Source: Promethearchaeota archaeon | GTDB taxonomy: Archaea; Asgardarchaeota; Lokiarchaeia; Sigyniarchaeales; SOKP01 | DNA: 64,000 nucleotides | Direction: 5' to 3' | Assembly (NCBI GenBank): GCA_030599585.1 | Contig: JAUVNS010000007.1 | Location: forward strand, 160,001 to 224,000 | Part shown: in pieces, positions 1,940-23,194 of the stretch | How the letters are laid out: every line of letters starts with the position of its first letter | How positions within the stretch are numbered: position 1 is the stretch's first letter | Made by a program: the position numbers and the translations under genes | The notes under the pieces: model-generated | What the model was told of the DNA's origin: nothing | What the model saw: only the letters and a program-made list of their open reading frames with translations | Database searches by the model: none

Positions 1940-3199
1940 TTGCCCGACTCAAAATTTTATATAGATTTGGATAGTGAATATTGTGCTCATAATTATCATC
2001 CTATACCTGTTGTGATTTCTAAAGCAGAAGGCGTGTGGGTTTACGATCCAGAAGGAAATAAATATTTAGATTGCTTATCTGCCTATTCCTCTCAAAATGC
2101 GGGTCATTGTCATCCAGAAATTGTAAAAGCGTTAAAAGAACAAGCCGATAAAGTTACTTTAACGTCTCGTGCTTTTTATAACGATGTGATGGGTCCTTTT
2201 TTAAAAAAACTATGTGAAATAGTAGGACCGCATATCAACGATCCAAAAAATTCAGGAATAATGGCTCTGCCAATGAACACTGGAACCGAAGCAGTGTCAA
2301 CTGGTCTGAAAGTTGCTAGAGCTTGGGGTTATATTAAGAAGAAAATTCCTAAAAACGAAGCAAAAATAATTATCTGTAGAGATAATTTTCACGGGAGATC
2401 AATCACTATTGTGGGTTTTAGTACGGATATTGAGGCTGTAAGATACTACGGTAATTTTGGTCCTTACACTCCCGGTTTTGTTACGATCCCTTATGGGGAT
2501 GCTGATGAATTAGAAAATACTATTTTAGAAATCGGTGCTGAAAATGTAGCGGCGTTTCTATTCGAACCTATTCAAGGAGAAGCAGGGGTTAATGTACCTC
2601 CAGAAGGTTTCCTTAGAAAAGTTAGAGAAATATGCACAAAATACAATGTTCTAATGATCGCTGACGAGATTCAAACGGGTTTCGGAAGAACAGGAGAATT
2701 ATTTGCTTGTGATCACGAAAGTGTAAAACCTGACGCGATTCTACTTGGTAAAGCGTTAGGTGGAGGCGTTTACCCTGTTTCTGCCGTAGTTACTACAAGA
2801 GACATTATTGGTCCTGACGTAATTAAACCAGGAACTCACGGAAGCACATTTGGTGGAAATCCTTTAGCTTCGGCTGTCGCTCTGAAATCCTTAGAAATTC
2901 ATATTGACGATCATTTAGCGCAGCGGTCAAAAGAATTTGGAGCCTATTTCTTGGATGGTCTTAGTAAAATAGCAGAAAAGAAAACTATCGTACCTATTAA
3001 AGAAGTTAGAGGGAAAGGATTGTTGATGGCGATTGAGTTTGAATCCGACGCAAGACACATAGTAGAATTATTTAAAGATAATGGAGTTTTAGCAAAACAT
3101 ACTCATTCTACAACTATTCGTTTTGCACCTCCGCTAATAATTACTAAGGATCAAATCGATTGGGCTCTTAAAATTATCGAAGATGTTCTAATAGTTTAA
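1940..3199 (+). CDS. rocD: Ornithine--oxo-acid aminotransferase (class III PLP)
   Basis: AHNYHPIPVV, YLDCLSAYS, FEPIQGEAG, ADEIQTGFGRTG, LGKALGGG (PLP Lys), HGSTFGGNPL. Confidence 0.92.
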   Translation: MPDSKFYIDLDSEYCAHNYHPIPVVISKAEGVWVYDPEGNKYLDCLSAYSSQNAGHCHPEIVKALKEQADKVTLTSRAFYNDVMGPFLKKLCEIVGPHINDPKNSGIMALPMNTGTEAVSTGLKVARAWGYIKKKIPKNEAKIIICRDNFHGRSITIVGFSTDIEAVRYYGNFGPYTPGFVTIPYGDADELENTILEIGAENVAAFLFEPIQGEAGVNVPPEGFLRKVREICTKYNVLMIADEIQTGFGRTGELFACDHESVKPDAILLGKALGGGVYPVSAVVTTRDIIGPDVIKPGTHGSTFGGNPLASAVALKSLEIHIDDHLAQRSKEFGAYFLDGLSKIAEKKTIVPIKEVRGKGLLMAIEFESDARHIVELFKDNGVLAKHTHSTTIRFAPPLIITKDQIDWALKIIEDVLIV

Positions 3200-3222
3200 A
3201 AGTTCTGCCGTTTAATTATGCT

Positions 3223-4146
3223 TTACATCTTTTTATTATCTTCTATAAAAAAATGAGTACCTGCTTTACCTTCGAGTGCTTTAGTTATTTTTTCTATTGA
3301 TGTAATAATAGCTTGTTCACCACCAGATTCAAGGAAATTTATTACGGCTTGTATCTTAGGACCCATACTTCCCGGAGGAAAATGTCCTTGCTTTAGATAA
3401 TCTTTAGCATCTGCAGTTGAAACCTTATCGAGGTATTTATAATCGACTCTACCGTAGTTCAAGGCTACTTTTTCGACATCTGTAGCAATTATTAAGATAT
3501 CTGCGCCTATCTGTTCTCCTAATTTTGCACTAGCTAAATCTTTGTCTATAACAGCTTCAACGCCTTGAAAGCGAGGACCTTCAGCAATAACGGGAACGCC
3601 ACCGCCACCACATGAAATAACGATAAAATTCTCCTGCATTAACTTTTTAATTTCTCGAGATTGAACTATCCTTATTGGTTTTGGTGAAGGAACTACGCGT
3701 CTCCATCCTTTTGACGTTTTCACGTATCCAGGGCGCTTTCTTTTGTATGCCGGCCCAATTGGTTTTGTAGGGTGAGTAAACGCTTTATCATTAGGGTCAA
3801 CTTCAACATAAGTTAAAACAGTTAAGAAATATTTTTCCAGATCAGTACCAAGTCGCGTGAGTTCTTCATCTAGGGTAGATTCAATTAAAAAACCTATTTG
3901 TCCTTGAGTTTCAGCGACTAATATCTGCAAAGGCATTCTTGTGATTTCATCAGACGCTTCTTGTTGAAGAAGTAGCGCACCTACTTGAGGGCCATTACCA
4001 TGTACAATAATAATATTATAATTTTCTGATAATTTAGCAATTTGCTTTATAGGTGCTTGCAAGTTATTAATCATCTGCTCGGGCGTTCCTCTTTCTCCCG
4101 GTTTTATGAGAGCATTTCCTCCAAGCGCAACAATTAGCGTTTTCAT
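3223..4146 (-). CDS. arcC: Carbamate kinase
   Basis: VALGGNAL, HGNGPQVG, PTKPIGP, WRRVVPSP, EAVIDKD, GSMGPK. Confidence 0.95.
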   Translation of the reverse strand: MKTLIVALGGNALIKPGERGTPEQMINNLQAPIKQIAKLSENYNIIIVHGNGPQVGALLLQQEASDEITRMPLQILVAETQGQIGFLIESTLDEELTRLGTDLEKYFLTVLTYVEVDPNDKAFTHPTKPIGPAYKRKRPGYVKTSKGWRRVVPSPKPIRIVQSREIKKLMQENFIVISCGGGGVPVIAEGPRFQGVEAVIDKDLASAKLGEQIGADILIIATDVEKVALNYGRVDYKYLDKVSTADAKDYLKQGHFPPGSMGPKIQAVINFLESGGEQAIITSIEKITKALEGKAGTHFFIEDNKKM

Positions 4147-4269
4147 TCAAGAGAACCTTTACGACAAACGATATAAAAGCAAATGAAAAATAATAATATT
4201 TTACTTTTTATTTAAAGCTTTTCTCTTCAATATGGTACAATATTATTCATCAAATGAAAAGAAAAAATT

Positions 4270-5202
4270 TTAAAATTTATCTCGTAAGAAGAGCATAATT
4301 GCTTTTTGGCTATGCAATCTGTTTTCTGCCTGATCGAATACATACGATTGAGGACCATCTATAACTTCAGCAGTTTGTTCATAACCTCTTTTAGCTGGCA
4401 AACAGTTCATAAAAATTGCGTCTGGTTTAGCAGCTTCCATTATCTGTGAGTTGACTTGGAATGGTGCGAAAATTTTCCGTCGTTCTTCTTCTTTATCAAC
4501 TGGGATACCATATGACATCCAGGAGTCGGTATAGATTACATCAGAATCTCTCGCAGCATTATAGGCATCATGAATAATATTTACATATGCCCCAGTTTCT
4601 TTTGATATTTGAGAGACTTCATCAAGAACTTCTTGTTCAGGCGTATATTCTGATCCTACGGGACAGGCAACATCTAATTCTAAACCAAAAATTGCAGCAA
4701 TCCGCATTAAATCGTATGTTACGTTATTATACGCATCTCCGAAATAACTTATTTTAAGATTTTCCAAACTTCCTAATTTCTCTTTTATAGTTAAGAAATC
4801 TCCCATCATTTGGCACGGATGCGCGAAATCATCCAGCATGTTGATAACCGGCACTTCAGCGTGTTGAGCTAAATCTAACATGTCGTGTCTTTTAAACAAT
4901 CTTGCTGCTATTATATTTACGAACCTTGAGGCCGTTTTTGCTGTATCGTGGATATTTTCTTTTTTACCGAGTGGAGAATCCTTAATTGAATAAAAAATAG
5001 CATGACCTCCTAATTGCTGCATCCCTACTTCAAAAGATATTCTTGTCCTTAAGGAGGGTTTCTCAAATATCATTAAAAGTGTTTCTCCTTTAAGTGCGGA
5101 GTCAAAAAGATGAGGATTTAGTTTAATCTCTGAAGCTTTATTAATTATTTTCTCGATTTCCGCCTTCGAAAGGTCAGAAATTTTTAATAAATGTCGAACC
5201 AT
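4270..5202 (-). CDS. arcB: Ornithine carbamoyltransferase (catabolic, NCLP variant)
   Basis: KPSLRTR carbamoyl-phosphate motif, HPCQ, DSWMSY, FMNCLPA, AENRLH; next to arcC. Confidence 0.9.
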   Translation of the reverse strand: MVRHLLKISDLSKAEIEKIINKASEIKLNPHLFDSALKGETLLMIFEKPSLRTRISFEVGMQQLGGHAIFYSIKDSPLGKKENIHDTAKTASRFVNIIAARLFKRHDMLDLAQHAEVPVINMLDDFAHPCQMMGDFLTIKEKLGSLENLKISYFGDAYNNVTYDLMRIAAIFGLELDVACPVGSEYTPEQEVLDEVSQISKETGAYVNIIHDAYNAARDSDVIYTDSWMSYGIPVDKEEERRKIFAPFQVNSQIMEAAKPDAIFMNCLPAKRGYEQTAEVIDGPQSYVFDQAENRLHSQKAIMLFLRDKF

Positions 5203-5242
5203 TTTAACATCAATGAATCTATCAGATAATACTTTATATTTT

Positions 5243-6409
5243 TTACTTTAAATCTTCTATTTTATGATTATCGCGACCGTGAGCAAGTTCTTTTAACATC
5301 TCTTGATCTTTTAAACTTAATTTTTCTGTAATTACACGGCTTAGGAGTTCACCGAGTCCAGGTCCAAGCATGAAACCTTGGCCGCACATACCCACTGCGT
5401 TAATGTATCCTTCAATATTGTCGATTTTTCCAATTATAGGATTTCCGTCTGGAGTCATGGGATACAATCCTCTCCATGTTCTTCTAATTTTAATGTTTTT
5501 TAATCGCGGCAGTAAATTAACCATTCTTTTTGTAATTTGTGGCAAGAACGAGCTAGTTTCGCGACGATCTATACCGGGAATGTTAGGTTCTGGTGTAAGA
5601 CAAAAAATAATTTTACCTTCTTTATTTTGATAGAAATAATAATTTTTTGAGTTTCCAAACTTCTCATCTGTAGCAGGTTTGATGTCAATAACCATCGTAG
5701 AAAAGAATTTTTTAACGGGCTCCGTAATTCCGGCTTCATGGCTTTCTGGAAAAACAGGTAAATCAATATTTATCATATTACCAATGTCTTTAGCGTGAGC
5801 TCCTGTTGCGTTAATTATTGTCTGAGCTTTATATTCCGCTTTATTGGTTTTTACGCCAGTGATTTTTTTATCTTTTGTAGTGATGTCAATTACTTCTTCG
5901 CTAAAGTTATACTCTGCTCCAAATTCCCTTGATTTACGATAAAAAGCATGAAGTGCTAACAAAGGAGAGGAATTTCCATCTTCAGGACTATACGTACCGC
6001 CCAATAAATTGTCGTTATTTATTCCAGGAACTAATTCTTTGATTTTATCAGCATTTACATAATCTATATTTAACCCATATTCTTTTTGTTGTCGAACCGT
6101 ATTTTTTAATATTTGTTCGTGTTCGTTAGTAAACGCGAGAAAACAATAACCACCTTGTTCCCACCATATATCGTCTTCATACAATTCTTTCCAAGAAGCA
6201 AAAATTTCTATTGATCTTTGACATAACCAAATCTTGCTTTTAAGCGAATGAGTTGCCCTAATCCCTCCAATAGCGTGCTTATTATCTCCCTGAGCCACAG
6301 AAGGCAAACTATCAAGAACTAGCGTTTTAAGCCCAGTTTTTGCCGTAGCTAAAGCAGTTGGGACGCCTACACTACCAGCCCCTATGATGATAACATCGAA
6401 TTCCGTCAA
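5243..6409 (-). CDS. FAD-dependent oxidoreductase, sarcosine oxidase beta / dye-linked L-proline dehydrogenase beta family
   Basis: IIGAGSVG dinucleotide motif, WRGLYPMTPDGNPIIG, GMCGQGFMLGP (DAO family). Confidence 0.8.
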   Translation of the reverse strand: MTEFDVIIIGAGSVGVPTALATAKTGLKTLVLDSLPSVAQGDNKHAIGGIRATHSLKSKIWLCQRSIEIFASWKELYEDDIWWEQGGYCFLAFTNEHEQILKNTVRQQKEYGLNIDYVNADKIKELVPGINNDNLLGGTYSPEDGNSSPLLALHAFYRKSREFGAEYNFSEEVIDITTKDKKITGVKTNKAEYKAQTIINATGAHAKDIGNMINIDLPVFPESHEAGITEPVKKFFSTMVIDIKPATDEKFGNSKNYYFYQNKEGKIIFCLTPEPNIPGIDRRETSSFLPQITKRMVNLLPRLKNIKIRRTWRGLYPMTPDGNPIIGKIDNIEGYINAVGMCGQGFMLGPGLGELLSRVITEKLSLKDQEMLKELAHGRDNHKIEDLK

Positions 6410-6411
6410 GA

Positions 6412-8496
6412 CTATTTACCTCCTTTCTTTGTTTTTATTCCCGCGAAAGCGCCCATAGGAACTTCTACAAATAACGGTCGTTTTGTTCCTGGAATAATCT
6501 TTTCTTGTTTTATTCCTTCTTCTCGGAAAATTCTATTAATTAGCGAGGTACAAGTTTTTCCACCACATGCCCCCATCCCAGCCTTAGTTAATGCTTTTAA
6601 TTCGTTAAAATCACGCACTCCATAGCGAATCCATTTTCGTATCTCTCCTACCGAAACTCTTTCGCATCTACACACGATAATATCATCATCGGTGTATGGT
6701 TGCTGATAGAAGTCCATTTCCTCAGTATAACCTGATTTTATAAGTTTAATACCAACAGCAATCTTAGCAATTTCTGAAGGCAACCTAACTGAAACTAGTT
6801 GGGTTTTAGGAAATTCTTTTAGAAATCGTGCTCGAGTAACTTCATACTCCCCTAATTCCCCATCGTTACTAACAACCATGACAGTTCGACCAACTTCAAT
6901 TTTTTCTGAAGTTAATTCTAAAGGAAAAGTAACTACTGGAGAATCTTTGTCTTTTCTATAATCCACTAAAGTGATAGCTAATCCCGGACAGACCGATACA
7001 CATTTTCCACAGCCAATACAATCTTGGTCGTCGGTAAAATACGGCAATTGAGTAATTAAATCGTCAATCGTTTTGATTTGTTCTTGAGGACACACGCTCG
7101 TACAAGGATTGCACGGTATTTCTTGATTACAATGAAATAATGGAAAGATACCTTCTTTCTTATCTATTACTTCCGTCTGAACAGGATCTGGAGGTTTTGC
7201 TTTCATTAAATTAGCGAAATCTTCTAACTCTTCAAGATTCTCCGAAATAGATATTCCCATTTCTTTTAAGATTTTTAACGCTTCAATTTTCCCGGTAAAG
7301 ATTGCTGCAGAAGCTTCAGCTATTTCTTGAGCGTCACCCGCAATCCATACTTTCATATCATACTGCTGCGCTTTATGGTAAAACTCATCGACAGGATCTA
7401 ATCCGACTGCGATTAAAAGAGTATCACACGCAAATGTTTTTTCGGAGCCGGGTTCAATTTCCCAGCTATCCGTTAGCTTTCCAATAGTAATGGATTCGAG
7501 TTCATCTTGACCGTTTGCAGATATAACCGTATGATTCGTATAGATTGGAACACCTAACCGTTTTAATTTGTCTTCGTGAACTCTGTATCCACCACATTGG
7601 GACATAGCTTCAACTAAACCCACAACATTTATCCCAGCTTGTATCGCGTGGTATCCTGCTATTAACCCGACATTACCTCCACCAACAATAAACACATTTT
7701 CCGCTGCTTTTATCAAATCTCGATTGACTAAAGTTTGAAAAGCACCAGCGCCATACACTCCAGGAAGCGTGTTGCCGGGAAAGACGAGCATCTTTTCTCT
7801 TGCTCCAGTTGCGATTAATAAATACTTAGGATTAATTAAAACATATTCGTCCATGTCCTTAATAAGCCCAACTAAGCCATCACTAAAAATCGCTATAACT
7901 ATACTGTTGACCCAAATCTTTACTGATTTAAGATTGGATACTATTTCTCCGAGTATATTTCCTATATCTATACCGCGTGTACCCGCATAAACATCTTCTT
8001 GAGAACCAAAAAATTTATGAGTTTGAAGGACTAATTTACCGCCTAATCTTGATTTATCGTCCACTAAAATAACATCAATATTATTTTCTCCTAAAATTTT
8101 TGTAGCAGAAAGTCCTGCGGGACCTCCTCCTATTACGAGAATGTCGGTATTTATTATTTGTATATCTCTAACTTCAACATGATCATCTTCCGAAGGTAAT
8201 TCTGGTAAATCATTACAACTTTCAATCGTCATACCTTCAGATAATGGAGTCATACATGCTTTAACTGGAACTCCATCGGCGATTACATTACACTGGGAAC
8301 ACTGGCCATTCGCGCAAAAAAGTCCCTGCGGACTGCGATCTTTTACATGATGACCAAAAATTTTAATTTTATTTAAAAATAGAGCGGAAGATATAACCAT
8401 CCCCTCGAATCCGTATAGAAGGTTCCCGTCAAATCTGAATTTTATTTTCTTCTTATCGGGAATTTCCAGAATGGGGTGCTTAGTTATGTTTTCCAT
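6412..8496 (-). CDS. Multidomain Fe-S flavoprotein (2Fe-2S + pyridine-nucleotide oxidoreductase + 2x4Fe-4S + BFD-like 2Fe-2S); sarcosine oxidase/proline dehydrogenase alpha-like
   Basis: FCANGQCSQC..C, GGGPAG, GGGNVG, CNPCTSVCP, CIGCGKCVSVCP, C-terminal CRCE..GMGACGGKTC. Confidence 0.82.
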   Translation of the reverse strand: MENITKHPILEIPDKKKIKFRFDGNLLYGFEGMVISSALFLNKIKIFGHHVKDRSPQGLFCANGQCSQCNVIADGVPVKACMTPLSEGMTIESCNDLPELPSEDDHVEVRDIQIINTDILVIGGGPAGLSATKILGENNIDVILVDDKSRLGGKLVLQTHKFFGSQEDVYAGTRGIDIGNILGEIVSNLKSVKIWVNSIVIAIFSDGLVGLIKDMDEYVLINPKYLLIATGAREKMLVFPGNTLPGVYGAGAFQTLVNRDLIKAAENVFIVGGGNVGLIAGYHAIQAGINVVGLVEAMSQCGGYRVHEDKLKRLGVPIYTNHTVISANGQDELESITIGKLTDSWEIEPGSEKTFACDTLLIAVGLDPVDEFYHKAQQYDMKVWIAGDAQEIAEASAAIFTGKIEALKILKEMGISISENLEELEDFANLMKAKPPDPVQTEVIDKKEGIFPLFHCNQEIPCNPCTSVCPQEQIKTIDDLITQLPYFTDDQDCIGCGKCVSVCPGLAITLVDYRKDKDSPVVTFPLELTSEKIEVGRTVMVVSNDGELGEYEVTRARFLKEFPKTQLVSVRLPSEIAKIAVGIKLIKSGYTEEMDFYQQPYTDDDIIVCRCERVSVGEIRKWIRYGVRDFNELKALTKAGMGACGGKTCTSLINRIFREEGIKQEKIIPGTKRPLFVEVPMGAFAGIKTKKGGK

Positions 8497-8531
8497 CTAG
8501 AATCAAGTTGAATAATTAATTATTATTGATA

Positions 8532-10712
8532 TTACTGATAAGGAGTTATAATATCAATTATTTTATGAAAATCGATTCCTAACTTTTTCACAGTCTCTAT
8601 AGTGGGACAACCGTTTTTACTCCAGCCTCGTTCAATGTAAACCGCATCTTGGAGCTTGGTATACTGTTCTTCTCTGTGTTTACGAAGAATTTTGATTTTT
8701 TCTTCTGTAGATTTACCTTCAATATCATTCTTCATCTCCTTTAACTGAGTATCGTATCTTTCTGCTCGACTTTCGTATTCAAGTGGCGTGACAGGTCCAA
8801 CAGCCCTATATGGTAAATTAGAATCGTGTTCTCGAAGACCTTTACCCTGTCTGATGTTAAATATTCTTTGAAAGTTATACACTCGTTCTGACATTAAAAG
8901 AAGATCGTCTATTGTCGATTCTCGCCCTGTAACTGCTGAGAAATATTCTGTATACCATTTTACGTGATCAGGAATTTTAGCGCGGACTAGTTCCCCCGTT
9001 TTAGGGTCTTTGATAGGGTAATCTGCTTGACTTGTTGGTTGGATATCGTTCCAAGGTAGTTTACATAAACCGCATAATCCAAACCAAGTTCTCCATATTG
9101 GGAAATACTGTAGAGCTTTAGCTTTATCCTGAAATGTTGGAATCGAATTTCGAATAACATCATCAAATATAAGCCATGCTTCGTCGTGTTGTGGACCCTT
9201 ATTTGCTAATCCATACCCACCTTGTTGTGCCAACGATTCTTTGGTTACATACTCAGAAAATTCTAATCCCTTGTGTTCCATACCGATATCTTGAACAAAT
9301 TGCGGATCTGCCCCATAGTTTTCGACAAAATATTGTTTCATCTGTTTAATGCCCTTACCAACGATAACTCCAAAGCCTTCCCCTTTAGCCATTTGATGAA
9401 TTAACTCAACTGCAGCTTCAACACTTCCAAAGTTTAATTCCAAACCTCCGGTTTTTTCTTTGTTTAAAATACCCGCCTCAAAACACTCCATTACGAACGC
9501 TATCCCTGTACCAACTGATATAGTATCTAAACCGTAAGTATCGCAATAGAAATTTACTTCTAAAACCCATTGTGGGTCCCATACGCCCCAATTTGAGCCA
9601 CAACCCGCTATTGTCTCGTATTCTGGACCATCAACAATTAATTTTTGCCCTTTAAAAGGACCTGTGCGAACTTCGTATCCCTCTGAATAGTGGGAACAAC
9701 TTACAGTGCATCCAATCCAACATCCATCTCCTCCTTCTTTTCCAGAGTAAATACCCCTCATAATTTCTCTATTGTAGGGAATGTCTTTCCCTCGAATTTC
9801 TCGATGAGCTCCGAAACGAAAGTTTTCGGTTGGTAAAAGATCTGTAACATTCATAATATCAGGAAGATGCCCCGTTCCAACTCTGCGCATTTCGTTCTGC
9901 ACAGGATCAAGTTTAATTATTTCTTGAGTGTGTGCTCTCCCTATTTTTCTAGCTTCTTCTAAATTAGCGGGATTATTCGATCCGACTGAAACTTTTGGAG
10001 AACGACACACCAAAGCTTTAATATTTTTATCAGCAAAAACGGTACCGATTCCCCCTCTTCCAGCTTGTTTGTTTGACGCCCATTTACGACCTGGAACATA
10101 CCACGAAAAGTTTAACAAGCCCCAATTGGTATATTTAGCTGCAGGGCCAGTACTTACAATGGAAACTCGTTGTTTATCACGATCATCTTCTGCGTAATGT
10201 TCTGTGAGCTGCTGGGTCAATTCATGAGAGAAATTTGATAATTCTTCAGATTCTTCAATGCTTTTGATTTGAATAAGACCCTTAACGCCATCAATAAGCA
10301 CAATAACTTCTTGTTGAGACTTCCCTTGAATTTCAAGCGCATCGAACCCTGAGAATTTTAAATACGGTCCGAAATAACCGCCCACATTAGAGTCAACTAT
10401 CATATCTGTCAAGGGAGATATTGTCGTAACTATTGATTTTCCCGATCCTGGATAAAAGATATTTCCTCCTAACGGTCCTGAAGAAATACATATTTCGTTT
10501 TCAGGATCGTTCCATTTTACTATTTTATCTTGCGGGAGTCCATTCCACATAAGCCAAAGGTCGAAACCTTTCCCTCCAATAAAATTCTCTTTCATCCCAT
10601 CGGTAACTGGCTTTATCTGAATCTCGTTATTAGTGAGATTAATATAGAGAGTTCTGTTAGTATACCCTCTTTGGACTTCGTGAATACCATATTTCATTTC
10701 TGCCAAAATCAT
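8532..10712 (-). CDS. aor: Aldehyde:ferredoxin oxidoreductase (tungstopterin AOR family)
   Basis: FIGGKG, DSNVGGYFG, AGRGGIG, CWIGCTVSC, GPEYET, CDTYGLDTIS, CGLCKL. Confidence 0.88.
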   Translation of the reverse strand: MILAEMKYGIHEVQRGYTNRTLYINLTNNEIQIKPVTDGMKENFIGGKGFDLWLMWNGLPQDKIVKWNDPENEICISSGPLGGNIFYPGSGKSIVTTISPLTDMIVDSNVGGYFGPYLKFSGFDALEIQGKSQQEVIVLIDGVKGLIQIKSIEESEELSNFSHELTQQLTEHYAEDDRDKQRVSIVSTGPAAKYTNWGLLNFSWYVPGRKWASNKQAGRGGIGTVFADKNIKALVCRSPKVSVGSNNPANLEEARKIGRAHTQEIIKLDPVQNEMRRVGTGHLPDIMNVTDLLPTENFRFGAHREIRGKDIPYNREIMRGIYSGKEGGDGCWIGCTVSCSHYSEGYEVRTGPFKGQKLIVDGPEYETIAGCGSNWGVWDPQWVLEVNFYCDTYGLDTISVGTGIAFVMECFEAGILNKEKTGGLELNFGSVEAAVELIHQMAKGEGFGVIVGKGIKQMKQYFVENYGADPQFVQDIGMEHKGLEFSEYVTKESLAQQGGYGLANKGPQHDEAWLIFDDVIRNSIPTFQDKAKALQYFPIWRTWFGLCGLCKLPWNDIQPTSQADYPIKDPKTGELVRAKIPDHVKWYTEYFSAVTGRESTIDDLLLMSERVYNFQRIFNIRQGKGLREHDSNLPYRAVGPVTPLEYESRAERYDTQLKEMKNDIEGKSTEEKIKILRKHREEQYTKLQDAVYIERGWSKNGCPTIETVKKLGIDFHKIIDIITPYQ

Positions 10713-10845
10713 AGATTTTCACTCAATTTATTTAAGATTATAATATTAAAAACATGACTTTAAACTATGGTTGATTTAATGAGACTTTAGAATTAAATAT
10801 TATTTAACTAAGTTTAAAAAAGGATTGTAAAAAATAGAAATAATT

Positions 10846-11409
10846 TTAAATCATTCTAGCTAACTCATTAGCCCAATTACGAATCTCATCCCAATTTCTT
10901 GAATCGTAAACTCCTGGCTCTGTTTCTTTAATTCCTGCCGGGAGGAAATTGTCTTTTTCTGACTCTAAGAATTTTTGATAAATTTTACCTATCTGATTAT
11001 AATCCCAGATACCACCAAACATAGTCATCGAGATTGGATTCAAATTATATTTAGAAGCTTTATCCTCAAGATATTTTTTGGAAATTCTAATAATTTCATC
11101 ATGTTCTCCTTTATATTCCATGAGCGCTCGCGCTCCTGAAGACACGAAGATTGCTACTTTCATTTTCTTGAGCTCACCGCTAAACTTGTTTAAAAATGCT
11201 TTAGCTTTACTCGTCCACATTTCCATTTTCATTCCACTCCCAATTATAACAAGTTCAAATTTTGAGATATCTTTGATCTTCTCTTCTTTGAGATTTACAA
11301 CTCTTACCTCAAATCCTTTACCTTGAAGAACTTTAGCAATTTCTTCCGAGGTACTAGTTGTCGCTCCATAACGAGTACCATATGCAATTAATATATTGGT
11401 TTTTTCCAT
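10846..11409 (-). CDS. Flavodoxin-domain protein (HemG/Flavodoxin_5-like)
   Basis: IAYGTRYGAT FMN loop; C-terminal DSRNWDEIRNWA. Confidence 0.82.
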   Translation of the reverse strand: MEKTNILIAYGTRYGATTSTSEEIAKVLQGKGFEVRVVNLKEEKIKDISKFELVIIGSGMKMEMWTSKAKAFLNKFSGELKKMKVAIFVSSGARALMEYKGEHDEIIRISKKYLEDKASKYNLNPISMTMFGGIWDYNQIGKIYQKFLESEKDNFLPAGIKETEPGVYDSRNWDEIRNWANELARMI

Positions 11410-11524
11410 TTTTTTTCCCTCTTTAAAAATTAGGACAATTGGACTATGATTAAATAATCAAACAAAGCTTCTTAATCTTACAACAAAAATTTATAATTAA
11501 AAAATTAGGTAGAATAAAAAATTA

Positions 11525-12865
11525 TTATTTAAGATATTTTGTTATAAATTTATCTAAAGTTTCTTCAATTGTTGGGCTGTTAACGGCTTCTATATCGTAC
11601 GAAACTCTAATAATAGGCTTATTGCTATTAATTAATTTTTCAAGATCGATCGGGCTACCATCAATTATAAATTCACATTCTGCTTTATTGAGTGTTTCTT
11701 CCATGTCTTTAATCTGTTGGTCGTTGTATCCCATAGCTGGAACAATCTGTGTGATCTGTGGAAACTCTTCAAAGACTTTTTTCATTGTACCTACAATGTA
11801 CGGTTTAGGATCAACGATAATAGCACCACTATTGGTTGCTGCGACAAAACCGGCACCGTAAGACATGCTTCCGTGAGTCAAAGTTGGACCATCTTCTACA
11901 ACGATCACTTTCTTACCCTTCAAATCGTGGTTTCCTTCAATAGTTACGACCGAATTAGTATAAATTTTCGCCGCAAGAGGGTTTAATTCTTTTAGATTAG
12001 CTTCAACAATTTTAACATCTTCAGGTTTAGCATTATTCATTTTATTAATTACAAATGCGTCAGCAGATCGAGCGTTCACTTCACCGGGATGGTATTTCAT
12101 TTCGTGACCGGGTCTCAATGGATCCACTACGATAAAGAGTAAATCTGGAACGTAAAACGATAGCTCGTTGTTTCCACCATCAAAAATAATTACATCCGCT
12201 TCTTTTTCTGCCTCTCTAACAATTTTTTCGTAATCTACTCCGGAGTAAATCACAAGTCCCTGCTCGATATATGGTTCATATTCCTCTCGTTCTTCAATTG
12301 TACAGTTGTATTTATCTAAATCTTCATACTTCTCAAAACGCATGACATTTTGCTTTATTAAATCCCCATAAGGCATAGGTTCTCGTACTGCTACAACTTT
12401 ATACCCCTTACTCATTAAATACCTGTAAGTTGCTCGAGAGACCTGACTTTTACCACATCCAGTTCTAACTGCACATATAGCTACAACAGGCTTATTAGAT
12501 TTAATTTGTGTAAACTTTCCCGAAATTAATCGATAATTCGCCCCAGCAGATAGCACCCGAGAACCCTTATGCATTAATTCTTCGTGCGAAACATCAGAAT
12601 AGGCAAACACCACTTCATCTATCTGATGATGTTTAATTATTTCTTCAAGGTGTTCTTCGGGAAGCATTGGGATGCCTTTTGGATATAAATTACCTGCTAA
12701 TTCCGCAGGGTATTTCCTTTCCGCCCCCTCAATTGTTCCTACATTCTGTTCTCCAGCGATAGTGAATGCGATAACCTCGTATTCTTCGTTGTCTCGAAAA
12801 ACAGTGTTAAACACGTGGAAGTCCATTCCTAAAGCTCCAATAATAACAACTTTCTTTTTCTGCAT
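11525..12865 (-). CDS. arcE: Arginine synthetase (ArcE)-like P-loop protein (cyclic 2,3-diphosphoglycerate synthetase-like family)
   Basis: YPAELAG.LYP.GIP, FAYSDVSH, P-loop AVRTGCGKS, TIEEREEYEP, DGGNN, EDGPTLTHG, PAMGY; clustered with arcB/arcC/rocD. ATG at 12865 preferred over TTG at 12874. Confidence 0.78.
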   Translation of the reverse strand: MQKKKVVIIGALGMDFHVFNTVFRDNEEYEVIAFTIAGEQNVGTIEGAERKYPAELAGNLYPKGIPMLPEEHLEEIIKHHQIDEVVFAYSDVSHEELMHKGSRVLSAGANYRLISGKFTQIKSNKPVVAICAVRTGCGKSQVSRATYRYLMSKGYKVVAVREPMPYGDLIKQNVMRFEKYEDLDKYNCTIEEREEYEPYIEQGLVIYSGVDYEKIVREAEKEADVIIFDGGNNELSFYVPDLLFIVVDPLRPGHEMKYHPGEVNARSADAFVINKMNNAKPEDVKIVEANLKELNPLAAKIYTNSVVTIEGNHDLKGKKVIVVEDGPTLTHGSMSYGAGFVAATNSGAIIVDPKPYIVGTMKKVFEEFPQITQIVPAMGYNDQQIKDMEETLNKAECEFIIDGSPIDLEKLINSNKPIIRVSYDIEAVNSPTIEETLDKFITKYLK

Positions 12866-12998
12866 ATGATACAAACCATTCTAATAGTATTCTTTACTTT
12901 CTTATGTTAATTAATTTGGGATATGTAATAATAGTTATTGAAAGTATTACGGGAATGACAACCCATTCATTAATTTTTGTAAACCTATTGTAGGAATG

Positions 12999-14117
12999 CT
13001 AATCATTAATTACCAGAGGTGGGAGATATATTTCTCTTAGCTCTGTTTGTTCTAATATTCTAGCATTTTCGGAACAATGGTGAACACAGACTCCACAACC
13101 TATACATTTATTTTTATCATCATATGCAATCCCATCAATCAATGAAACTGCCTCGATCGGGCATTTATCGACACAGATTCCGCAACCAACACACTTGTTT
13201 TCATCTACTTTCGCAATGTAGGATGTCAAAGTATGAAATGATAAAATTCCTCTATAATAAGTCTGAAAAAGAATGCAACAACACTTACAACAATTACATA
13301 TAGCGTTTTCTTTTTGATCGAGACTAAATTCATCATGAAAAGTCTTATGAACAAGCCCTTCTTCTTCGGCTTCTAATAATATTCTCTTAGCTTCATCTTT
13401 AGACACAGGTTTACCCAAACCATGATCTATAAAATATCGACCCATATTTCCAAAATGAAAGCATCTAAATCTATCACTTGCTGTTTTACAAGTTTCACCT
13501 AATAAACTCTTTTGAAGCTTACATGGACACTCCGAAAGAGATATAATTTCTTGTTCATCTATGATCCTCGAAGCTTCATGTAAAGGTAATACTGTTTCCT
13601 GTGGAACAGATATTTCCTTTTCAATCGGAATAATTCGTGCAAAAATTGGCAATCTCTCTTTGAAAATTGGTAATAATCCCTCATAATTCGCTTGAACCAT
13701 TTCAGTCGTTTCCTTAAACATTTTTTCAAAAATTTTAGCCAATTTTTGCTTCTGTTCAAATGGTCGGTCTCCGATGAGGGAATATTCAAATATATCTGCA
13801 ACCGGCGGCAATAGACGATATTCCATCATATTACTACCTTCAATTGGCTTATCCATAATGATTCCATTATCCATTAAGGAATCTAATATTTCTTTTAATC
13901 TGGTATCATTTAATTCAGTTTTTTCTTTTAACTCTTGAAAAGTCAATATGGGTTTTCTAAAATTAAGCAAAAATTTGACTTCTTCTTCATTCAAAAGAGT
14001 TTTTAAGATTTCAACTAATGTCTCGTTAGCTTGAAAGAGAGGATTCCCGCTTGCCCTTACAATTAATTTAGCAGCTTTATACCAAACCTTTTCTGACATA
14101 ATTAACTCTATCCACAA
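12999..14117 (-). CDS. 4Fe-4S binding protein with N-terminal HTH-like region and Cys-rich cluster
   Basis: ECPCK..C..C, ICNCCKCCC, CVGCGICVDKCP, CIGCGVCVHHC. Confidence 0.78.
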   Translation of the reverse strand: MWIELIMSEKVWYKAAKLIVRASGNPLFQANETLVEILKTLLNEEEVKFLLNFRKPILTFQELKEKTELNDTRLKEILDSLMDNGIIMDKPIEGSNMMEYRLLPPVADIFEYSLIGDRPFEQKQKLAKIFEKMFKETTEMVQANYEGLLPIFKERLPIFARIIPIEKEISVPQETVLPLHEASRIIDEQEIISLSECPCKLQKSLLGETCKTASDRFRCFHFGNMGRYFIDHGLGKPVSKDEAKRILLEAEEEGLVHKTFHDEFSLDQKENAICNCCKCCCILFQTYYRGILSFHTLTSYIAKVDENKCVGCGICVDKCPIEAVSLIDGIAYDDKNKCIGCGVCVHHCSENARILEQTELREIYLPPLVIND

Positions 14118-14259: not shown

Positions 14260-14667
14260 TTAGTATTGTATAATTGCTAGATCTTTAATTCTTTCAAAAT
14301 GATTTACATTTTTAGTTATTATTTTCTTTATCCCATTTGATAACATAATACCCGCAATAAGGATGTCGTTGTCATCAATTCTCTGACCTTGGGATTCTAA
14401 ATTATCGTAGATTTCAGCTGCCATTTCAGCTTCCTTATATCCTAAAGGGAAGATTTCCATGCTGCTAATAAAGTCTGTCCATATTTTATAAAGCTGATTG
14501 TATCTATTTGTGGATAATTTTCTTTTGGTGCGCTCTAAGCCAATATTGATTTCATACACCGTAATTGCTGTAATATGAATTAAATCTTCTTGTTTAGAGA
14601 TACTTTTTTTAATTTCTTTATTACCATTAAGGTAATCAACACATGCAGATGTATCTAATATGATCAT
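14260..14667 (-). CDS. vapC: VapC PIN-domain toxin
   Basis: IILDTS, ITVYE, DDNDILIAG, ITKNVNHF; ATGA overlap with the antitoxin gene. Confidence 0.9.
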   Translation of the reverse strand: MIILDTSACVDYLNGNKEIKKSISKQEDLIHITAITVYEINIGLERTKRKLSTNRYNQLYKIWTDFISSMEIFPLGYKEAEMAAEIYDNLESQGQRIDDNDILIAGIMLSNGIKKIITKNVNHFERIKDLAIIQY

Positions 14668-14903
14668 TTAATCTCACCGATTTCGGAGTTTTTCCACCTA
14701 CGACCGGGACGATTCGTAATATCATTCCAAATTTCACTTTTTTCTTTTGCCGAAAGGTTCCATGTTCCGAAGGTCTTTTCCATCTTCAGTTTTTGAATTT
14801 TTAGCAATCGTAAGAAAAGTTCAGAAAAGCTTTCGTTCTCCCTTTTAATTTTCATTAATTTCTTATATACGTCTTCAGTAATACTAATATTTTTGGATGT
14901 CAT
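14664..14903 (-). CDS. vapB: Archaeal VapB-type antitoxin
   Basis: MTSKNISITEDVYKKL..IKRENESFSEL pattern. True start probably ATG at 14903, not 14927. Confidence 0.85.
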   Translation of the reverse strand: MTSKNISITEDVYKKLMKIKRENESFSELFLRLLKIQKLKMEKTFGTWNLSAKEKSEIWNDITNRPGRRWKNSEIGEIK

Positions 14904-14934
14904 ATGTATATATGTATACATACACATATTTAAG
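14902..14934 (-). promoter_or_regulatory. Putative vapBC promoter with palindromic operator
   Basis: Perfect 12-bp palindrome TATGTATACATA (14911-14922) flanked by ATATGT/ACATAT; TATA-like TTAAATA about 24 nt upstream of the vapB ATG. Confidence 0.55.
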
Positions 14935-15008: not shown

Positions 15009-17255
15009 TTATAATGCATCGAGCGCAGTATTAAAAGTCTCGCTCGGACGCATCATTTTCTCGGTAATTTCATCATCAGGTTTATAATAACCTTTCAAAT
15101 CTACCGGTGTCCCTTGAACAGCGAGTAACTCTTCGGTAATTTTGGCTTCATTTTCTGTCAATACTTGGGCAAGAAGTGCAAATCGGGCTTTCATATCAGC
15201 ATCCTTATCTTGAGTAGCGAGAGCTTGAGCCCAATACATTGTTAAATAGAACTGGCTGCCGCGATTGTCTATTTCATTGACTTTTCGGGAGGGAGATTTA
15301 TTTTCATTCAAATATTTCTCAACCGCCTGATCTAATGTTTCCGCCAGCAATATAGCTTTAGAATTATTTAATCGTCGACCAAAGTGTGTGAATGAATTTG
15401 CTAATGCAAGAAATTCACCCAATGAATCCCATCGCAAGTGATTTTCGCTTATAAATTGTTTAACGTGTTTTGGCGCACTTCCACCGGCTCCAGTCTCGAA
15501 TAATCCTCCTCCTGCCATTAATGGAACAGTTGAGAGCATTTTTGCACTGGTGCCAACTTCAAGGATTGGAAACAGATCAGTAAGATAATCTCGTAATACA
15601 TTACCAGTAACTGCGATAATATTCTTTCCTTCACTAATTGATTCACATGCATTTCGGGTAGCATCTTCCAGGTTCATTATTTTTATATCTAAACCGGCAG
15701 TGTCATGGTCTTTCAGATAAAGATTCACTTTCTTTATCAATTCAGCATCGTGGGCTCGGTTTTCATTCAACCAGAATATAGTTGGGTAACTGGTGAGTTT
15801 AGCTCGCTTTACCGCCAATCCAACCCAATCTTGGATCGGTAAGTCTTTAGTTTGGCACATGCGGAAGAAATCTCCTTCTTCAACAGGGCGTTCCAATAAA
15901 ATTTCACCATTTTCTGCCACTACACGAACATTTCCTTTGCTTTTTAATTCAAAAGTTTTGTTATGAGATCCATATTCTTCAGCTTTTTCAGCCATTAAGC
16001 CTATGTTTTGTACGGTTCCCATTGTTGTAACATCAAAGGCTCCATGCTCTTTACAATAATCAATGGTGATTTGGAAAACACTGGCATAGCTCGAATCGGG
16101 AATGACAAATTTAGTATCATACGCTTTTCCATCGGGACCCCACATTTGACCGCCGTTCCGAATTGCTGCCGGCATTGATGCATCGATAATCACATCGGAG
16201 GGGACATGTAAATTGGTTATCCCTTTATCAGAATCTACCATCGCTAATTTTGGCCGAGTCGCATAGCAAGCCTCGATATCATCTGCAATTTCCTTTTGCT
16301 TCTCAGAGGATAATTCTTTAATTTTAGCGTATAGTTCACCCAGACCATTTCGGGGGCTAATTGCAAGCTGTTTGAAGGTTTCTGCATATTTTTCATATAT
16401 TTCTTTGAAATAGATCGATACAACGTGGCCGAATATGATTGGATCGGAGACCTTCATCATGGTTGCCTTAAGATGAACTGAGAATAAGATATCCTGTTCT
16501 TTAGCATCTTTGACCTGTTCTTCCAAGAAAAATCTAAGCAATTTCTTGCTCATTATGGAAGCATCTATGATTTCACCTGGAATTAAAGCCAATTTGTCCT
16601 TCAAAACTGTTTTTTTATCCGTAGTGTCGATAAATTCAATTGTTGAATCTCCTGCCGTTTGTTCCGTAATGGTAGCTGAGATTTCGGTTGATCGTAAGTC
16701 GCCTTCCTGCATGGTGGTTACATGAGATTTGGAGTCTTTTGTCCAAATACCCATGGAATGTGGATTTTTTTTCGCAAAATTTTTGACCGGTCCTGGAACT
16801 CTCCTATCTGAATTTCCCATACGGGTTACTGGGTTTACAGCACTTCCCTTCACAATATTAAATTTCTTCAAGATCGCCTTTTCTTCATCGGTTTCCGGAT
16901 CAATTGGATAATTGGGGACATTATATCCCTTTTCTTGGAGTTCTTTAACAGCTGCATTAATTTGTGGGATTGAAGCACTAATATTTGGAAGTTTAATGAT
17001 ATTAGCTTCGGGTTTTTTGACCAATTCTCCAATCTCATTCAAATCATTGGATTGTTTTTGTTCTTCTGTCAAATATTCCGGGAAATTTGCAAGAATTCGA
17101 CCCGCTAGAGAAATATTCCTTGTTTCTACGGGGATTCCTGCTACACTAGCGAATTTTTTCACAATTGGGAGGAAAGAGTAGGTGGCTAACCGTGGGGCTT
17201 CATCCACAATTGTGTAGATTATTTTTTCATTCGATTGACTCATGAGTTTCATCAC
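15009..17255 (-). CDS. icd: Monomeric NADP-dependent isocitrate dehydrogenase
   Basis: [61 protein letters not shown]; about 745 aa. Confidence 0.95.
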
Positions 17256-17569
17256 ATTTTGAATAAATTAATAGTTGTTTTTAATCCTAATAAGGTTATT
17301 TTATCGTTCATACATATTGCCTTTTTTTTGTAATTTTAAAAAAATTATTTTCTATGTATGTGAATTTCTAATCTCTTAAAAAGTGAACTGATTAATTTAC
17401 TCCCACAAATATCCCCTAACTGAATTAGGAACTATAAGCAATTTCTATTTAATCCCCAAAAAAGAGCTTGGAATTATGTATATTGATGAATACCGATGTT
17501 TAAAATTAAGTAATTATTATAAAATCTTAACCTATAAAATCGTCTAGCTTTTCATTAGGAAAATATAAG

Positions 17570-18343: not shown

Positions 18344-18415
18344 TCGAATTGCTCAACCTATAAATTTTTTATATTAAAAAGAAAAAAGTAAAAAATATTT
18401 TAGATATTATCTAAA

Positions 18416-20251: not shown

Positions 20252-20252
20252 T

Positions 20253-23193: not shown

Positions 23194-23194
23194 T

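Follow-up and report, generated by a model that had tools for sequence, protein, structure and literature searches.

The window, a stretch of 64,000 nucleotides from a Promethearchaeota genome (100% complete, 8.9% contamination), contains a cluster of nine genes. The first-pass annotation had described a co-oriented minus-strand run with a convergent ornithine aminotransferase (OAT) gene, and domain and profile matches confirmed all nine genes with the families and coordinates assigned to them (Table 1). The AOR, alpha, beta and OTC genes are separated by gaps of 35, 2 and 40 bp, respectively, which suggests co-transcription of this core.

Table 1. Coordinates and family evidence for the genes of the cluster (positions refer to the window)
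Gene product	Position	Strand	Evidence
OAT (RocD)	1940..3199	+	TIGR01885 520.6 bits, cut-off 378.4; convergent on cluster
Carbamate kinase (ArcC)	3223..4146	-	TIGR00746 369.1 bits, cut-off 358.25
OTC (ArcB/ArgF)	4270..5202	-	TIGR00658 361.9 bits, cut-off 280.85
Beta subunit, DAO-family FAD flavoprotein, proline-dehydrogenase-like	5243..6409	-	PF01266 8.6e-58
Alpha-type fused Fe-S flavoprotein	6412..8496	-	Fer2_4, Pyr_redox_2, 2x[4Fe-4S], BFD-like
AOR-family oxidoreductase, 726 aa	8532..10712	-	PF01314 4.8e-93, PF02730 1.2e-45
Flavodoxin-like (Flavodoxin_5)	10846..11409	-	PF12724 5.4e-16
ArcE-like P-loop protein	ORF 11525-12874, likely 11525..12865	-	Family relatives
Protein with C-terminal 2x[4Fe-4S]	12999..14117	-	Fer4 families only, residues 274-352

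Arginine genes and conservation of the cluster

The ArcE-like protein, probably translated from the ATG at 12865 (446 aa, as in its homologues), gave no match in Pfam, NCBIfam or PDB, and its family was assigned via relatives. These are annotated as 'GTPase' or 'cyclic 2,3-diphosphoglycerate synthase', the same names as reported for TK2200 homologues (Michimori et al. 2024, PMC11032458), and family members from lineages named in that paper are ~51% identical to the Lokiarchaeial protein. In a first set of 80 loci, the relatives adjoined carbamate kinase in 13 and OTC in 15 cases; in a second set the values were 13/80 and 8/80. We propose that the protein, a relative of cDPG synthase, belongs to the arginine synthetase family and that it would catalyze the conversion of arginine, ADP and Pi to citrulline, NH3 and ATP. 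The two ATP per arginine claimed earlier depend on this protein, in which six positions invariant in 159 other family members are replaced; up to two ATP would be formed provided that it acts as the Thermococcus ArcE does.

The order ArcE-like/(flavodoxin)/AOR/alpha/beta/OTC/carbamate kinase/convergent OAT was found in at least 12 other Promethearchaeota (Lokiarchaeial) assemblies with AOR identities from 67 to 94%, which is more than chance. The expected linkage of the AOR and flavoprotein genes to arc genes was thus found in related genomes, where carbamate kinase is kept at the same place and OAT lies convergent behind it in at least seven loci. Conservation covers the core of the run described earlier. 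The flavodoxin gene, found between the ArcE-like gene and AOR in ~5 of 13 cluster-bearing related loci, is a variable accessory gene for a possible electron acceptor, and the 4Fe-4S protein (N-terminal 270 aa without family match) lies outside the conserved unit, having no homologue in any of 80 AOR-centred related loci. Among 41 genomes of the family, 15 contain the ArcE-like, beta and OAT genes together, and the AOR is encoded in each of the 17 ArcE-positive genomes. Apart from the cluster, the AOR gene occurs in roughly half of the family; its orthologue is present in 16 of the 41 that have neither ArcE-like protein nor flavoenzyme nor OAT, and in the other Asgard families examined the AOR stands alone (18 loci); its role can therefore not be confined to the cluster.

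A juxtaposition without function would require that a mobile AOR + flavoenzyme module, common to Desulfobacterota, was inserted into the arc operon of one Lokiarchaeial ancestor and then inherited passively. Module transfer fits the 50-59% identity of the fused alpha and the beta subunit to AOR-adjoining Desulfobacterota genes; ABC exporter genes, unknown ORFs and a PIN gene also interrupt the cluster at several positions in different genomes, and the cluster-bearing genomes all belong to one family and are therefore not independent. Arguing against passive inheritance, the order holds down to 67% AOR identity with gaps of 2-40 bp, and the ArcE-like, beta and OAT genes were gained or lost jointly across genera. 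The coincidence of two GSA sources in a genome with no other GSA sink would be unlikely as well, and we consider such a chance insertion highly improbable.

Flavoenzyme, AOR and the canonical dehydrogenases

Among solved structures, 1y56_B (PH1364 of P. horikoshii) is by far the best match to the beta subunit, aligned over the full length with an E value of 1.7e-52; the scores were 182 bits for the solved proline dehydrogenase versus 82 bits for SoxB. The alpha subunit is composed of an N-terminal [2Fe-2S] Fer2_4 domain, an FAD-binding Rossmann fold, a second nucleotide-binding Rossmann fold, 2x[4Fe-4S] and a BFD-like [2Fe-2S] domain, with the cysteine motifs and GxGxxG motifs (near residues 121 and 271) present in the translation. 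Its solved relatives are SoxA (2gag_A) and PH1363 (1y56_A, 1.4e-18). Desulfobacterota beta orthologues that adjoin an AOR gene are 50-53% identical to the Lokiarchaeial subunit, and the fused alpha corresponds to three separate genes in Clostridia. Alpha and beta are predicted to form a heteromeric proline-dehydrogenase-like flavoenzyme, with proline as the probable substrate.

The AOR belongs to the aldehyde oxidoreductases with a tungsten or molybdenum bis-pterin cofactor, but aligned to solved AOR and FOR proteins with only 153-175 bits. It retains the [4Fe-4S] cysteines together with a glutamate and a histidine aligned to residues of P. furiosus AOR that we take to be Glu313 and His448, and thus is of the aldehyde-oxidizing type. 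Phylogenetic analysis, suggested in the first-pass annotation, placed it in a distinct, tight and uncharacterized clade (55-94% identity overall, 55-60% between archaea and bacteria) with members from Asgard, Bathyarchaeia, Desulfobacterota, Chloroflexota and Bacillota. A long branch splits this clade from the eight further AOR paralogues of the source genome.

The neighborhoods of the AOR in several unrelated phyla point to GSA/P5C. The gene follows proC/GntR regulator/alpha/beta in Desulfobacterota, and in Clostridia it is part of the series sigma-54 regulator/SNF transporter/split alpha/beta/polyferredoxin/AOR/proA/proB/proC. In Anaerolineae (Chloroflexota) the order is polyferredoxin/AOR/class-III aminotransferase; the aminotransferase of locus L046 is a true OAT (574 bits), and L055 has a 54%-identical homologue. 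proC and/or the prolyl-tRNA synthetase gene (proS) lie near the AOR in Bathyarchaeia and Acidobacteria, and proline-dehydrogenase-like genes stand beside AOR orthologues in three lineages. Among 80 loci with a Clostridia-type beta subunit, which is only ~35% identical to the Lokiarchaeial one, an AOR orthologue lies directly downstream of beta in 51, and a canonical P5C dehydrogenase occupies its position behind the same five-gene operon in three (L328, L333 and L337; 810-828 bits on TIGR01236 for L328 and L337).

Arginine deiminase, arginase and P5C dehydrogenase, noted earlier as missing from the window, are absent from the whole source genome, in which no PutA-type proline dehydrogenase (Pro_dh family) was found either. 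The genome contains only a DDAH-like protein and an agmatinase. Its two ALDH-family genes, one MMSDH and one unspecific, score below every P5C dehydrogenase model (best 117 bits versus 613.6 for TIGR01236), and none of 25 sampled family genomes gave a P5C-dehydrogenase-like match at E ≤ 1e-100. A literature search found no paper that ties an AOR to GSA/P5C. Judged from sequence and gene context, the AOR of the cluster is a strong candidate for a glutamate-5-semialdehyde:ferredoxin oxidoreductase used in place of the NAD route. The earlier assignment of this activity is independently supported by the bacterial proline-dehydrogenase-like, pro and OAT neighbors and by the P5C dehydrogenase found at the position of the AOR; the AOR genes outside clusters limit this support. 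As to replacement, the AOR would stand in for the NAD-dependent P5C dehydrogenase missing from the source genome. However, Wukongibacter and Anaerosolibacter encode a true TIGR01236 P5C dehydrogenase in addition to flavoenzyme + AOR operons, and such a dehydrogenase accompanies the AOR in ~12 Asgard genomes of other families; thus, the AOR is not always a replacement.

This coexistence, together with the AOR genes that lack a GSA-producing partner (16/41 family genomes, 18 loci in other Asgard families), would also be expected if the AOR oxidized other or a wider range of aldehydes from amine catabolism. It could act on omega-semialdehydes in general (those of succinate, glutarate or aminoadipate), or remove formaldehyde released by a sarcosine or N-methyl-amino-acid dehydrogenase, which the SoxAB-like alpha/beta pair might be; the adjacency to arc genes would then reflect shared regulation of amino acid breakdown rather than a step dedicated to GSA. 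The pair indeed also matches SoxA/SoxB, and alpha is devoid of the folate-binding half of SoxA, so that free formaldehyde could be formed. Most aminotransferase partners in Anaerolineae are PRK05769-type enzymes of unknown substrate that miss the OAT model cut-off, and FOR-like enzymes accept several C1-C6 aldehydes (PMC12096430). In contrast, the proC, proA/proB, prolyl-tRNA synthetase, OAT and P5C dehydrogenase neighbors indicate proline/GSA and none of them sarcosine, GABA or lysine, the beta subunit is closer to proline dehydrogenase than to SoxB, and the eight other AOR paralogues are available for general aldehyde removal. Another physiological aldehyde is, on balance, rather unlikely.

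Run in reverse, the AOR would reduce glutamate to GSA with reduced ferredoxin as an ATP-free substitute for ProB/ProA, and the cluster would be mainly biosynthetic, leading from GSA to proline via ProC, and to ornithine and arginine via OAT, OTC, carbamate kinase and a reversible ArcE-like protein. AORs are able to reduce acids with strongly reduced ferredoxin, and at -6.8 kJ/mol the ArcE reaction lies close to equilibrium. Most cluster-bearing genomes are devoid of proA (15/17) and argG (13/17), both of which are present in cluster-free relatives; the source genome has proC and no proA, and the AOR of Bathyarchaeia is flanked by proC and prolyl-tRNA synthetase. Genus g4 combines argC with the ArcE-like gene and lacks argG, a pattern for which biosynthetic use was considered possible (PMC11032458). 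Against this direction, proA-positive genomes encode the AOR just as often (17/22), so that it does not complement proA, and the flavoenzyme is of the dehydrogenase type, followed by a catabolic P5C dehydrogenase in sister operons that stand under a sigma-54 regulator and include a transporter. Thermodynamics disfavor both acid reduction and reversal of the OAT reaction. Moreover, the source genome holds argC, argD and argG, which by the logic of the ArcE paper leaves the ArcE-like protein for breakdown. A mainly biosynthetic role is therefore improbable, although the only OTC over the cut-off (whole-genome search) in this argC-, argD- and argG-bearing genome is the one inside the cluster, which leaves room for flux in either direction.

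Proposed route and known systems

We favor, with a probability of roughly 0.6, the reading that the cluster is a hub in which arginine, ornithine and proline are converted to glutamate via GSA/P5C, with the AOR as GSA oxidase. The ArcE-like protein, OTC and carbamate kinase would convert arginine to ornithine, CO2 and 2 NH3, and OAT would form GSA and glutamate from ornithine and 2-oxoglutarate. Proline would be oxidized to P5C by the alpha/beta Fe-S flavoenzyme. GSA and P5C are in equilibrium, and the aldehyde form (GSA) would be oxidized to glutamate by the AOR. The electrons would probably be transferred to a low-potential carrier, which may be ferredoxin, the Fe-S chain of alpha or, where it is encoded next to the AOR, the flavodoxin.

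The arginine branch resembles the arginine synthetase pathway of T. kodakarensis (ArcE TK2200 + ArcB + ArcC) in that a cDPG-synthase-related P-loop protein is encoded near OTC and carbamate kinase, the genome lacks arginine deiminase and the product ornithine feeds proline metabolism; Lokiarchaeota are among the reported ArcE holders (Michimori et al. 2024, PMC11032458). It differs in the six replaced residues of the ArcE-like protein and in that the arc genes enclose the AOR and the proline-dehydrogenase-like pair and face OAT. Across 160 other ArcE-family loci, such an arrangement did not turn up; a single AOR match was obtained among them.

With P. furiosus FOR (1B25/1B4N) and AOR (1AOR), the Lokiarchaeial AOR shares the two-domain AOR/WOR fold, the [4Fe-4S] cysteines and Glu/His. 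A role of FOR in basic amino acid catabolism was reportedly discussed by Roy et al. in 1999. Tungsten enzymes have a precedent for semialdehydes, since FOR has its lowest Km for the C5 compound glutaric dialdehyde, and its true substrate has been suggested to be a semialdehyde (review PMC12096430). The Lokiarchaeial protein is longer (726 versus about 605-620 aa), distant in score, and falls into a separate clade with a set of genomic partners that indicates GSA; this clade is not among the characterized ones in the 2025 review (PMC12096430).

Both flavoenzyme subunits match the L-proline dehydrogenase PH1363/PH1364 of P. horikoshii (1Y56), with FAD and Fe-S predicted; in contrast, the Lokiarchaeial alpha is a single 694-aa fusion with Fer2_4, 2x[4Fe-4S] and BFD-like domains, and the pair is encoded beside an AOR. 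The heteromeric dye-linked L-proline dehydrogenases of Thermococcales include an alpha-beta-gamma-delta type. The RocD-RocA/PutA route proceeds via the same intermediates with an orthologous OAT (TIGR01885), and Clostridia sister operons pair a TIGR01236 P5C dehydrogenase with the same flavoenzyme genes, whereas the source genome has neither an ALDH-type P5C dehydrogenase nor a PutA-type proline dehydrogenase. If the proposed route is correct, oxidation of the aldehyde would produce reduced ferredoxin in place of the NADH formed in the RocA/PutA route.

Layout and conservation of the arginine cluster

The window lies at C26:160001-224000 of the source genome G000 (4.85 Mb, 52 contigs, 100% complete, 8.9% contamination), and its genes have their closest relatives in MAGs of the Promethearchaeota/Lokiarchaeia. 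Every gene named in the first-pass annotation was recovered by ORF listing and family scans. From the AOR-family gene through those for the two subunits of a proline-dehydrogenase-like flavoenzyme (alpha, beta) to the OTC gene, the intergenic gaps measure 35, 2, and 40 bp.

Features of the window, followed by features of other loci; scores are for family profiles
Feature	Position	Strand	Match or remark
AN1 zinc-finger protein, 307 aa	795-1718	-	no other family matches
Ornithine aminotransferase (OAT)	1940-3199	+	TIGR01885 520.6 (cut-off 378.4)
Carbamate kinase	3223-4146	-	TIGR00746 369.1 (cut-off 358.25)
OTC	4270-5202	-	TIGR00658 361.9 (cut-off 280.85)
DAO-family flavoprotein (beta)	5243-6409	-	
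Fe-S flavoprotein, 694 aa (alpha)	6412-8496	-	
AOR-family protein, 726 aa	8532-10712	-	PF02730, PF01314
Flavodoxin	10846-11409	-	
ArcE-like P-loop protein, 446/449 aa	11525-12865/12874	-	no Pfam/NCBIfam match
Protein with C-terminal di-cluster ferredoxin domain	12999-14117	-	
VapC-type PIN toxin and overlapping 87-aa upstream ORF	14260-14667, 14664-14927	-	PF01850; NF047863 below cut-off
Monomeric isocitrate dehydrogenase (IDH), two-subunit ATP-citrate lyase (ACL), lipoamide-dehydrogenase-like protein, SucCD	15009-25536		PF03971 (IDH); beside cluster
Small SH3-domain protein	23195-23542	-	
DDAH-like (dimethylargininase family) protein	G000:C28:63417-64190 (L011:1183-1941)	-	294 bits (cut-off 450)
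Two ABC exporter genes, closest relative	L013:12307-15959		ABC_membrane, ABC_tran
Polyferredoxin	L058:9498-9932		
TupA-like tungstate-binding protein, Anaerosolibacter carboniphilus	L194:7148-8359	-	243 bits (cut-off 400)

In AOR-centred loci drawn from species-representative genomes, the order ArcE-like/(flavodoxin)/AOR/alpha/beta/OTC/carbamate kinase/convergent OAT was found in at least 12 Lokiarchaeial assemblies, with AOR identities spanning 67-94% and unrelated genes inserted here and there. The proposed linkage of the AOR and flavoprotein genes to the arc genes in related genomes was thus confirmed. The flavodoxin gene is only sometimes conserved with the cluster, and the 4Fe-4S protein was rejected as a member of the unit, its position never being kept. 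In the closest relative (L013, AOR 94% identical) the two ABC exporter genes stand between AOR and alpha. The flavodoxin gene of L013, L014, and L016 comes after one for a TetR-like regulator. The PIN toxin gene, for which the overlapping ORF may encode the antitoxin, is located with that ORF between the cluster and the IDH gene; homologues occur at varying places in the related clusters L016, L017, and L028. In a distant relative (L026), genes for ACL and an isocitrate/isopropylmalate dehydrogenase lie upstream of the ArcE-like gene, so that this adjacency is present in at least one distant relative. The AN1 zinc-finger and SH3 proteins have eukaryote-like domains typical of Asgard genomes.

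Among 41 genomes of the family, the ArcE-like protein, beta, and a true OAT co-occur: 15 genomes have all three, and 21-22 have neither member of any pair. AOR is present in all 17 ArcE-positive genomes and in a further 16 of the 41 that contain none of ArcE-like, beta, and OAT; in other Asgard families, AOR stood alone in 18 loci examined. The occurrence of AOR thus extends beyond contexts that produce GSA (glutamate-5-semialdehyde), which weakens its assignment to this substrate. Cluster-bearing genomes mostly lack proA (15/17) and argG (13/17), and cluster-free relatives have both. The gene content of the cluster-bearing lineages suggests auxotrophs for arginine and proline that subsist on imported arginine; in genus g4 (argC present, argG absent), ArcE might be biosynthetic. 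A role of AOR as a proA substitute was rejected because AOR is equally frequent with and without proA.

Family assignments of the cluster proteins

AOR contains both family domains at full length (PF02730, AFOR_N, 1.2e-45; PF01314, AFOR_C domains 2 and 3, 4.8e-93). In the alignment with 1aor_A, the C..C...C motif of the [4Fe-4S] cluster, the Glu of PEYE, and the His of 'GpqH' match the Pf AOR residues; the fourth [4Fe-4S] cysteine falls in a stretch unaligned to 1aor_A. This second-shell Glu/His pair is that of clades which oxidise aldehydes; the BamB/YdhV type is Cys-ligated instead. By sequence it is a member of the AOR/WOR family with a predicted bis-pterin W/Mo cofactor. The best PDB scores were 175 (1aor, AOR), 153 (1b25, FOR), 153 (8c0z, AOR_Aa), 122 (WOR5), and 82 bits (BamB), and neither PDB scores nor NCBIfam models nor the tree revealed a close affiliation with the characterised AOR sensu stricto, FOR, WOR5, GAPOR, or BamB. 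The NCBIfam GAPOR and YdhV-type models matched the N-terminal domain only, far under their cut-offs, and in the tree the protein falls into its own clade, on a long branch from the eight other AOR paralogues of G000. This clade is tight (55-60% identity between archaea and bacteria) and ranges over Loki- and Thorarchaeia, Bathyarchaeia, Desulfobacterota, Chloroflexota, Bacillota, Bipolaricaulota, Bacteroidota, and Calditrichota. A 2025 tungsten-enzyme review (PMC12096430) regards many AOR clades as hypothetical to date and notes that FOR prefers a C5 dialdehyde; in an Asgard study, unclassified AORs were among the most highly expressed genes. Our literature search retrieved no paper joining AOR with GSA or P5C, and nothing of relevance that joins it with proline dehydrogenase, Lokiarchaeota, or Asgard.

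The best solved relative of beta by far is chain B of 1Y56, the beta subunit of Pyrococcus horikoshii L-proline dehydrogenase (E = 1.7e-52, full length), compared with only ~82 bits to SoxB. Alpha matches PH1363 (1y56_A, 1.4e-18) and the N-terminal half of SoxA; its translation contains a Fer2_4 [2Fe-2S] motif, two GxGxxG nucleotide folds, two CxxCxxCxxxCP-type motifs, and a BFD-like [2Fe-2S] motif, domains that in Clostridia are split over three genes. A DAO-type beta and a SoxA-N/NADH-dehydrogenase-like alpha encoded 2 bp apart correspond to the layout of heteromeric L-proline dehydrogenases (PDH1/PDH2). Oxidation of L-proline to P5C is the candidate reaction of this flavoenzyme, with indirect evidence from Clostridia-type homologues that share operons with genes for P5C dehydrogenase, proABC, and SNF transporters.

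For the ArcE-like protein, no relatives were found in the PDB, Pfam, or NCBIfam. Annotations of its homologues read 'GTPase' or 'cyclic 2,3-diphosphoglycerate synthase', as do those of homologues of Thermococcus kodakarensis TK2200, and Lokiarchaeota are among the ArcE holders (Michimori et al. 2024, PMC11032458). Identities of 43-57% (median 51%) were obtained to members from Pyrodictiaceae, Desulfurococcaceae, Thermofilum, Coprothermobacter, Virgibacillus, and Bacillus; family membership was judged on such relatives from lineages named in PMC11032458. The protein keeps 116 of the 141 columns that are ≥95% conserved in the family. All 12 Loki cluster proteins share the replacements R17 to M/Y/N, Q41 to G, P43 to Q, H165 to E, W231 to F, and D237 to E at positions with no or almost no variation among 159 other ArcE-family members; these six exchanges could mean an altered substrate or regulation. 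Carbamate kinase adjoins ArcE-family genes in 13/80 loci in each of two samples, an OTC-like gene in 15/80 and 8/80, and here both stand in the cluster of a genome without arcA. Membership of the ArcE family is clear from the comparison; identical chemistry (Arg + ADP + Pi <-> citrulline + ATP + NH3) is not assured.

The first-pass annotation had noted the lack of arginine deiminase, arginase, and an NAD-dependent P5C dehydrogenase in the window; genome-wide profile matches confirmed the absence of P5C dehydrogenase, PutA, arginine deiminase, and arginase from G000. Its two ALDH-family genes, one for a CoA-acylating methylmalonate-semialdehyde dehydrogenase (over cut-off) and an unspecific one, reached ≤228 bits with the P5C dehydrogenase models (TIGR01236/01237/01238, NF002852; cut-offs 614-660), and none of 25 sampled genomes of the family gave a P5C-dehydrogenase-like match at E ≤ 1e-100. 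Neither a PutA-type Pro_dh nor proA was found in G000, which has one proC and one OCD-family gene. The only arginase-fold protein is an agmatinase, and the search for arginine deiminase returned only the DDAH-like protein, under cut-off. The latter, the sole amidinotransferase-fold protein of G000, could form citrulline by hydrolysis of a guanidino compound.

Neighbourhoods of the AOR clade outside Lokiarchaeia

In Desulfobacterota the order is proC (divergent)/GntR regulator/fused alpha/beta/AOR, and in Clostridia sigma-54 regulator/SNF-family transporter/split alpha/beta/145-aa polyferredoxin/AOR, followed in Anaerosolibacter by proA, proB, and proC. Anaerolineae have polyferredoxin/AOR/class-III aminotransferase, the last being a true OAT in L046 (574 bits; the homologue in L055 is 54% identical), and in Bathyarchaeia and an Acidobacterium, proC and/or prolyl-tRNA synthetase genes lie near AOR. 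GSA/P5C is the sole metabolite common to proline dehydrogenase, OAT, ProA, and ProC. As the informative neighbours converge on GSA/P5C, GSA is the likely substrate of AOR. A polyferredoxin gene (130-160 aa, three Fer4 motifs) stands directly upstream of AOR in Clostridia and Chloroflexota. Loki and Desulfobacterota, in which the fused alpha brings a di-cluster domain of its own, lack this gene. The polyferredoxin was seen in L058 and in 18 other bacterial and archaeal non-Loki loci.

Directly downstream of Clostridia-type beta, an AOR orthologue was found in 51 of 80 loci, and in three (Sporosalibacterium faouarense, a Tissierellales MAG, and a Christensenellaceae MAG) a P5C dehydrogenase takes its place. 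This protein of 543 aa starts 60-90 bp past beta, behind a Fer2_4/Pyr_redox/Fer4/BFD/DAO operon, and the two of the three that were checked on NCBIfam scored 810 and 828 bits with TIGR01236. AOR and P5C dehydrogenase are thus in non-orthologous displacement at a fixed operon position, which also supports proline as the flavoenzyme substrate. The beta subunits of these operons are only ~35% identical to Loki beta, which weakens the argument for the Loki cluster. Alpha/beta were also considered as an opine (octopine/nopaline) oxidase; this reading was set aside because the product would be a keto acid, not an aldehyde, and because it leaves the AOR, proC, proAB, and P5C dehydrogenase neighbours unexplained.

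The genomes of Wukongibacter and Anaerosolibacter encode a true P5C dehydrogenase in addition to flavoenzyme + AOR operons, and about 12 Asgard genomes of other families hold both AOR and P5C dehydrogenase. A strict anti-correlation of the two across Asgard archaea was therefore rejected, and their coexistence indicates that AOR is an alternative to P5C dehydrogenase, not always a replacement. A precedent is reported from Aromatoleum, in which an AOR and an NAD-dependent dehydrogenase for phenylacetaldehyde occur together. In Anaerosolibacter carboniphilus, the TupA-like gene adjoins the canonical P5C dehydrogenase gene, and the same genome has the flavoenzyme + AOR + proABC operon.

Proposed pathway and comparison with known systems

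We favour, with a probability of roughly 0.6, that the cluster AOR converts GSA to glutamate at an arginine/ornithine/proline hub. The ArcE-like protein would transform arginine to citrulline and NH3 (+ATP), OTC would cleave citrulline to ornithine and carbamoyl phosphate, from which carbamate kinase would form ATP, CO2, and NH3, and OAT would yield GSA from ornithine. Alpha/beta would oxidise proline to P5C, and AOR would oxidise GSA to glutamate with ferredoxin, flavodoxin, or the Fe-S chain of alpha as acceptor; glutamate would then enter the route encoded by the neighbouring IDH/ACL/SucCD genes. The steps from arginine to GSA rest on family assignments; we infer the oxidation of proline and GSA, the acceptor, and the direction of flux. 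Flux in the catabolic direction is a tentative reading, since G000 has argC, argD, and argG on another contig, its sole OTC is the cluster gene, and the ArcE reaction is near equilibrium. Acid/aldehyde couples have potentials near -580 mV, so that the aldehyde step can reduce ferredoxin, favouring H2 formation in a syntrophic fermenter.

A further proposal, which we consider improbable, is that AOR and alpha/beta form a single electron-transfer machine. Electrons of very low potential from GSA and of much higher potential from proline would come together in the Fe-S/flavin chain of alpha and would be confurcated onto NAD(P)+, or GSA oxidation and P5C reduction would be coupled in a dismutation. 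Alpha has four predicted Fe-S clusters and a second nucleotide-binding fold. If true, a strict fermenter could oxidise proline without a quinone or another high-potential acceptor.

Should AOR act on GSA as proposed, this would be the first physiological role for a large multi-phylum AOR clade for which we found no described function. It would also give P5C dehydrogenase, which to our knowledge is regarded as a universal step in the breakdown of arginine, ornithine, and proline, an alternative that depends on tungsten and ferredoxin. The proposed reaction would explain how syntrophic, H2-producing Asgard archaea and anaerobic bacteria oxidise these amino acids: the electrons of the aldehyde would leave at ferredoxin potential, which suits H2 formation better than NADH does. 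Combined with the arginine synthetase pathway, the reaction would allow a gain of up to 2 ATP and reduced ferredoxin per arginine before glutamate is used, making arginine an unusually rich fermentation substrate. The bacterial version is present in several Clostridia in culture, namely Anaerosolibacter carboniphilus, Geosporobacter ferrireducens, Alkaliphilus spp., and Acidaminobacter hydrogenoformans, so that the idea is open to direct testing.

The fold of AOR bears no relation to that of the ALDH-type P5C dehydrogenase, and our claim is that it would work like this enzyme without being a member of its family. We rate the system as a known enzyme family set among known pathways, in which the reaction and the pathway architecture are newly proposed.
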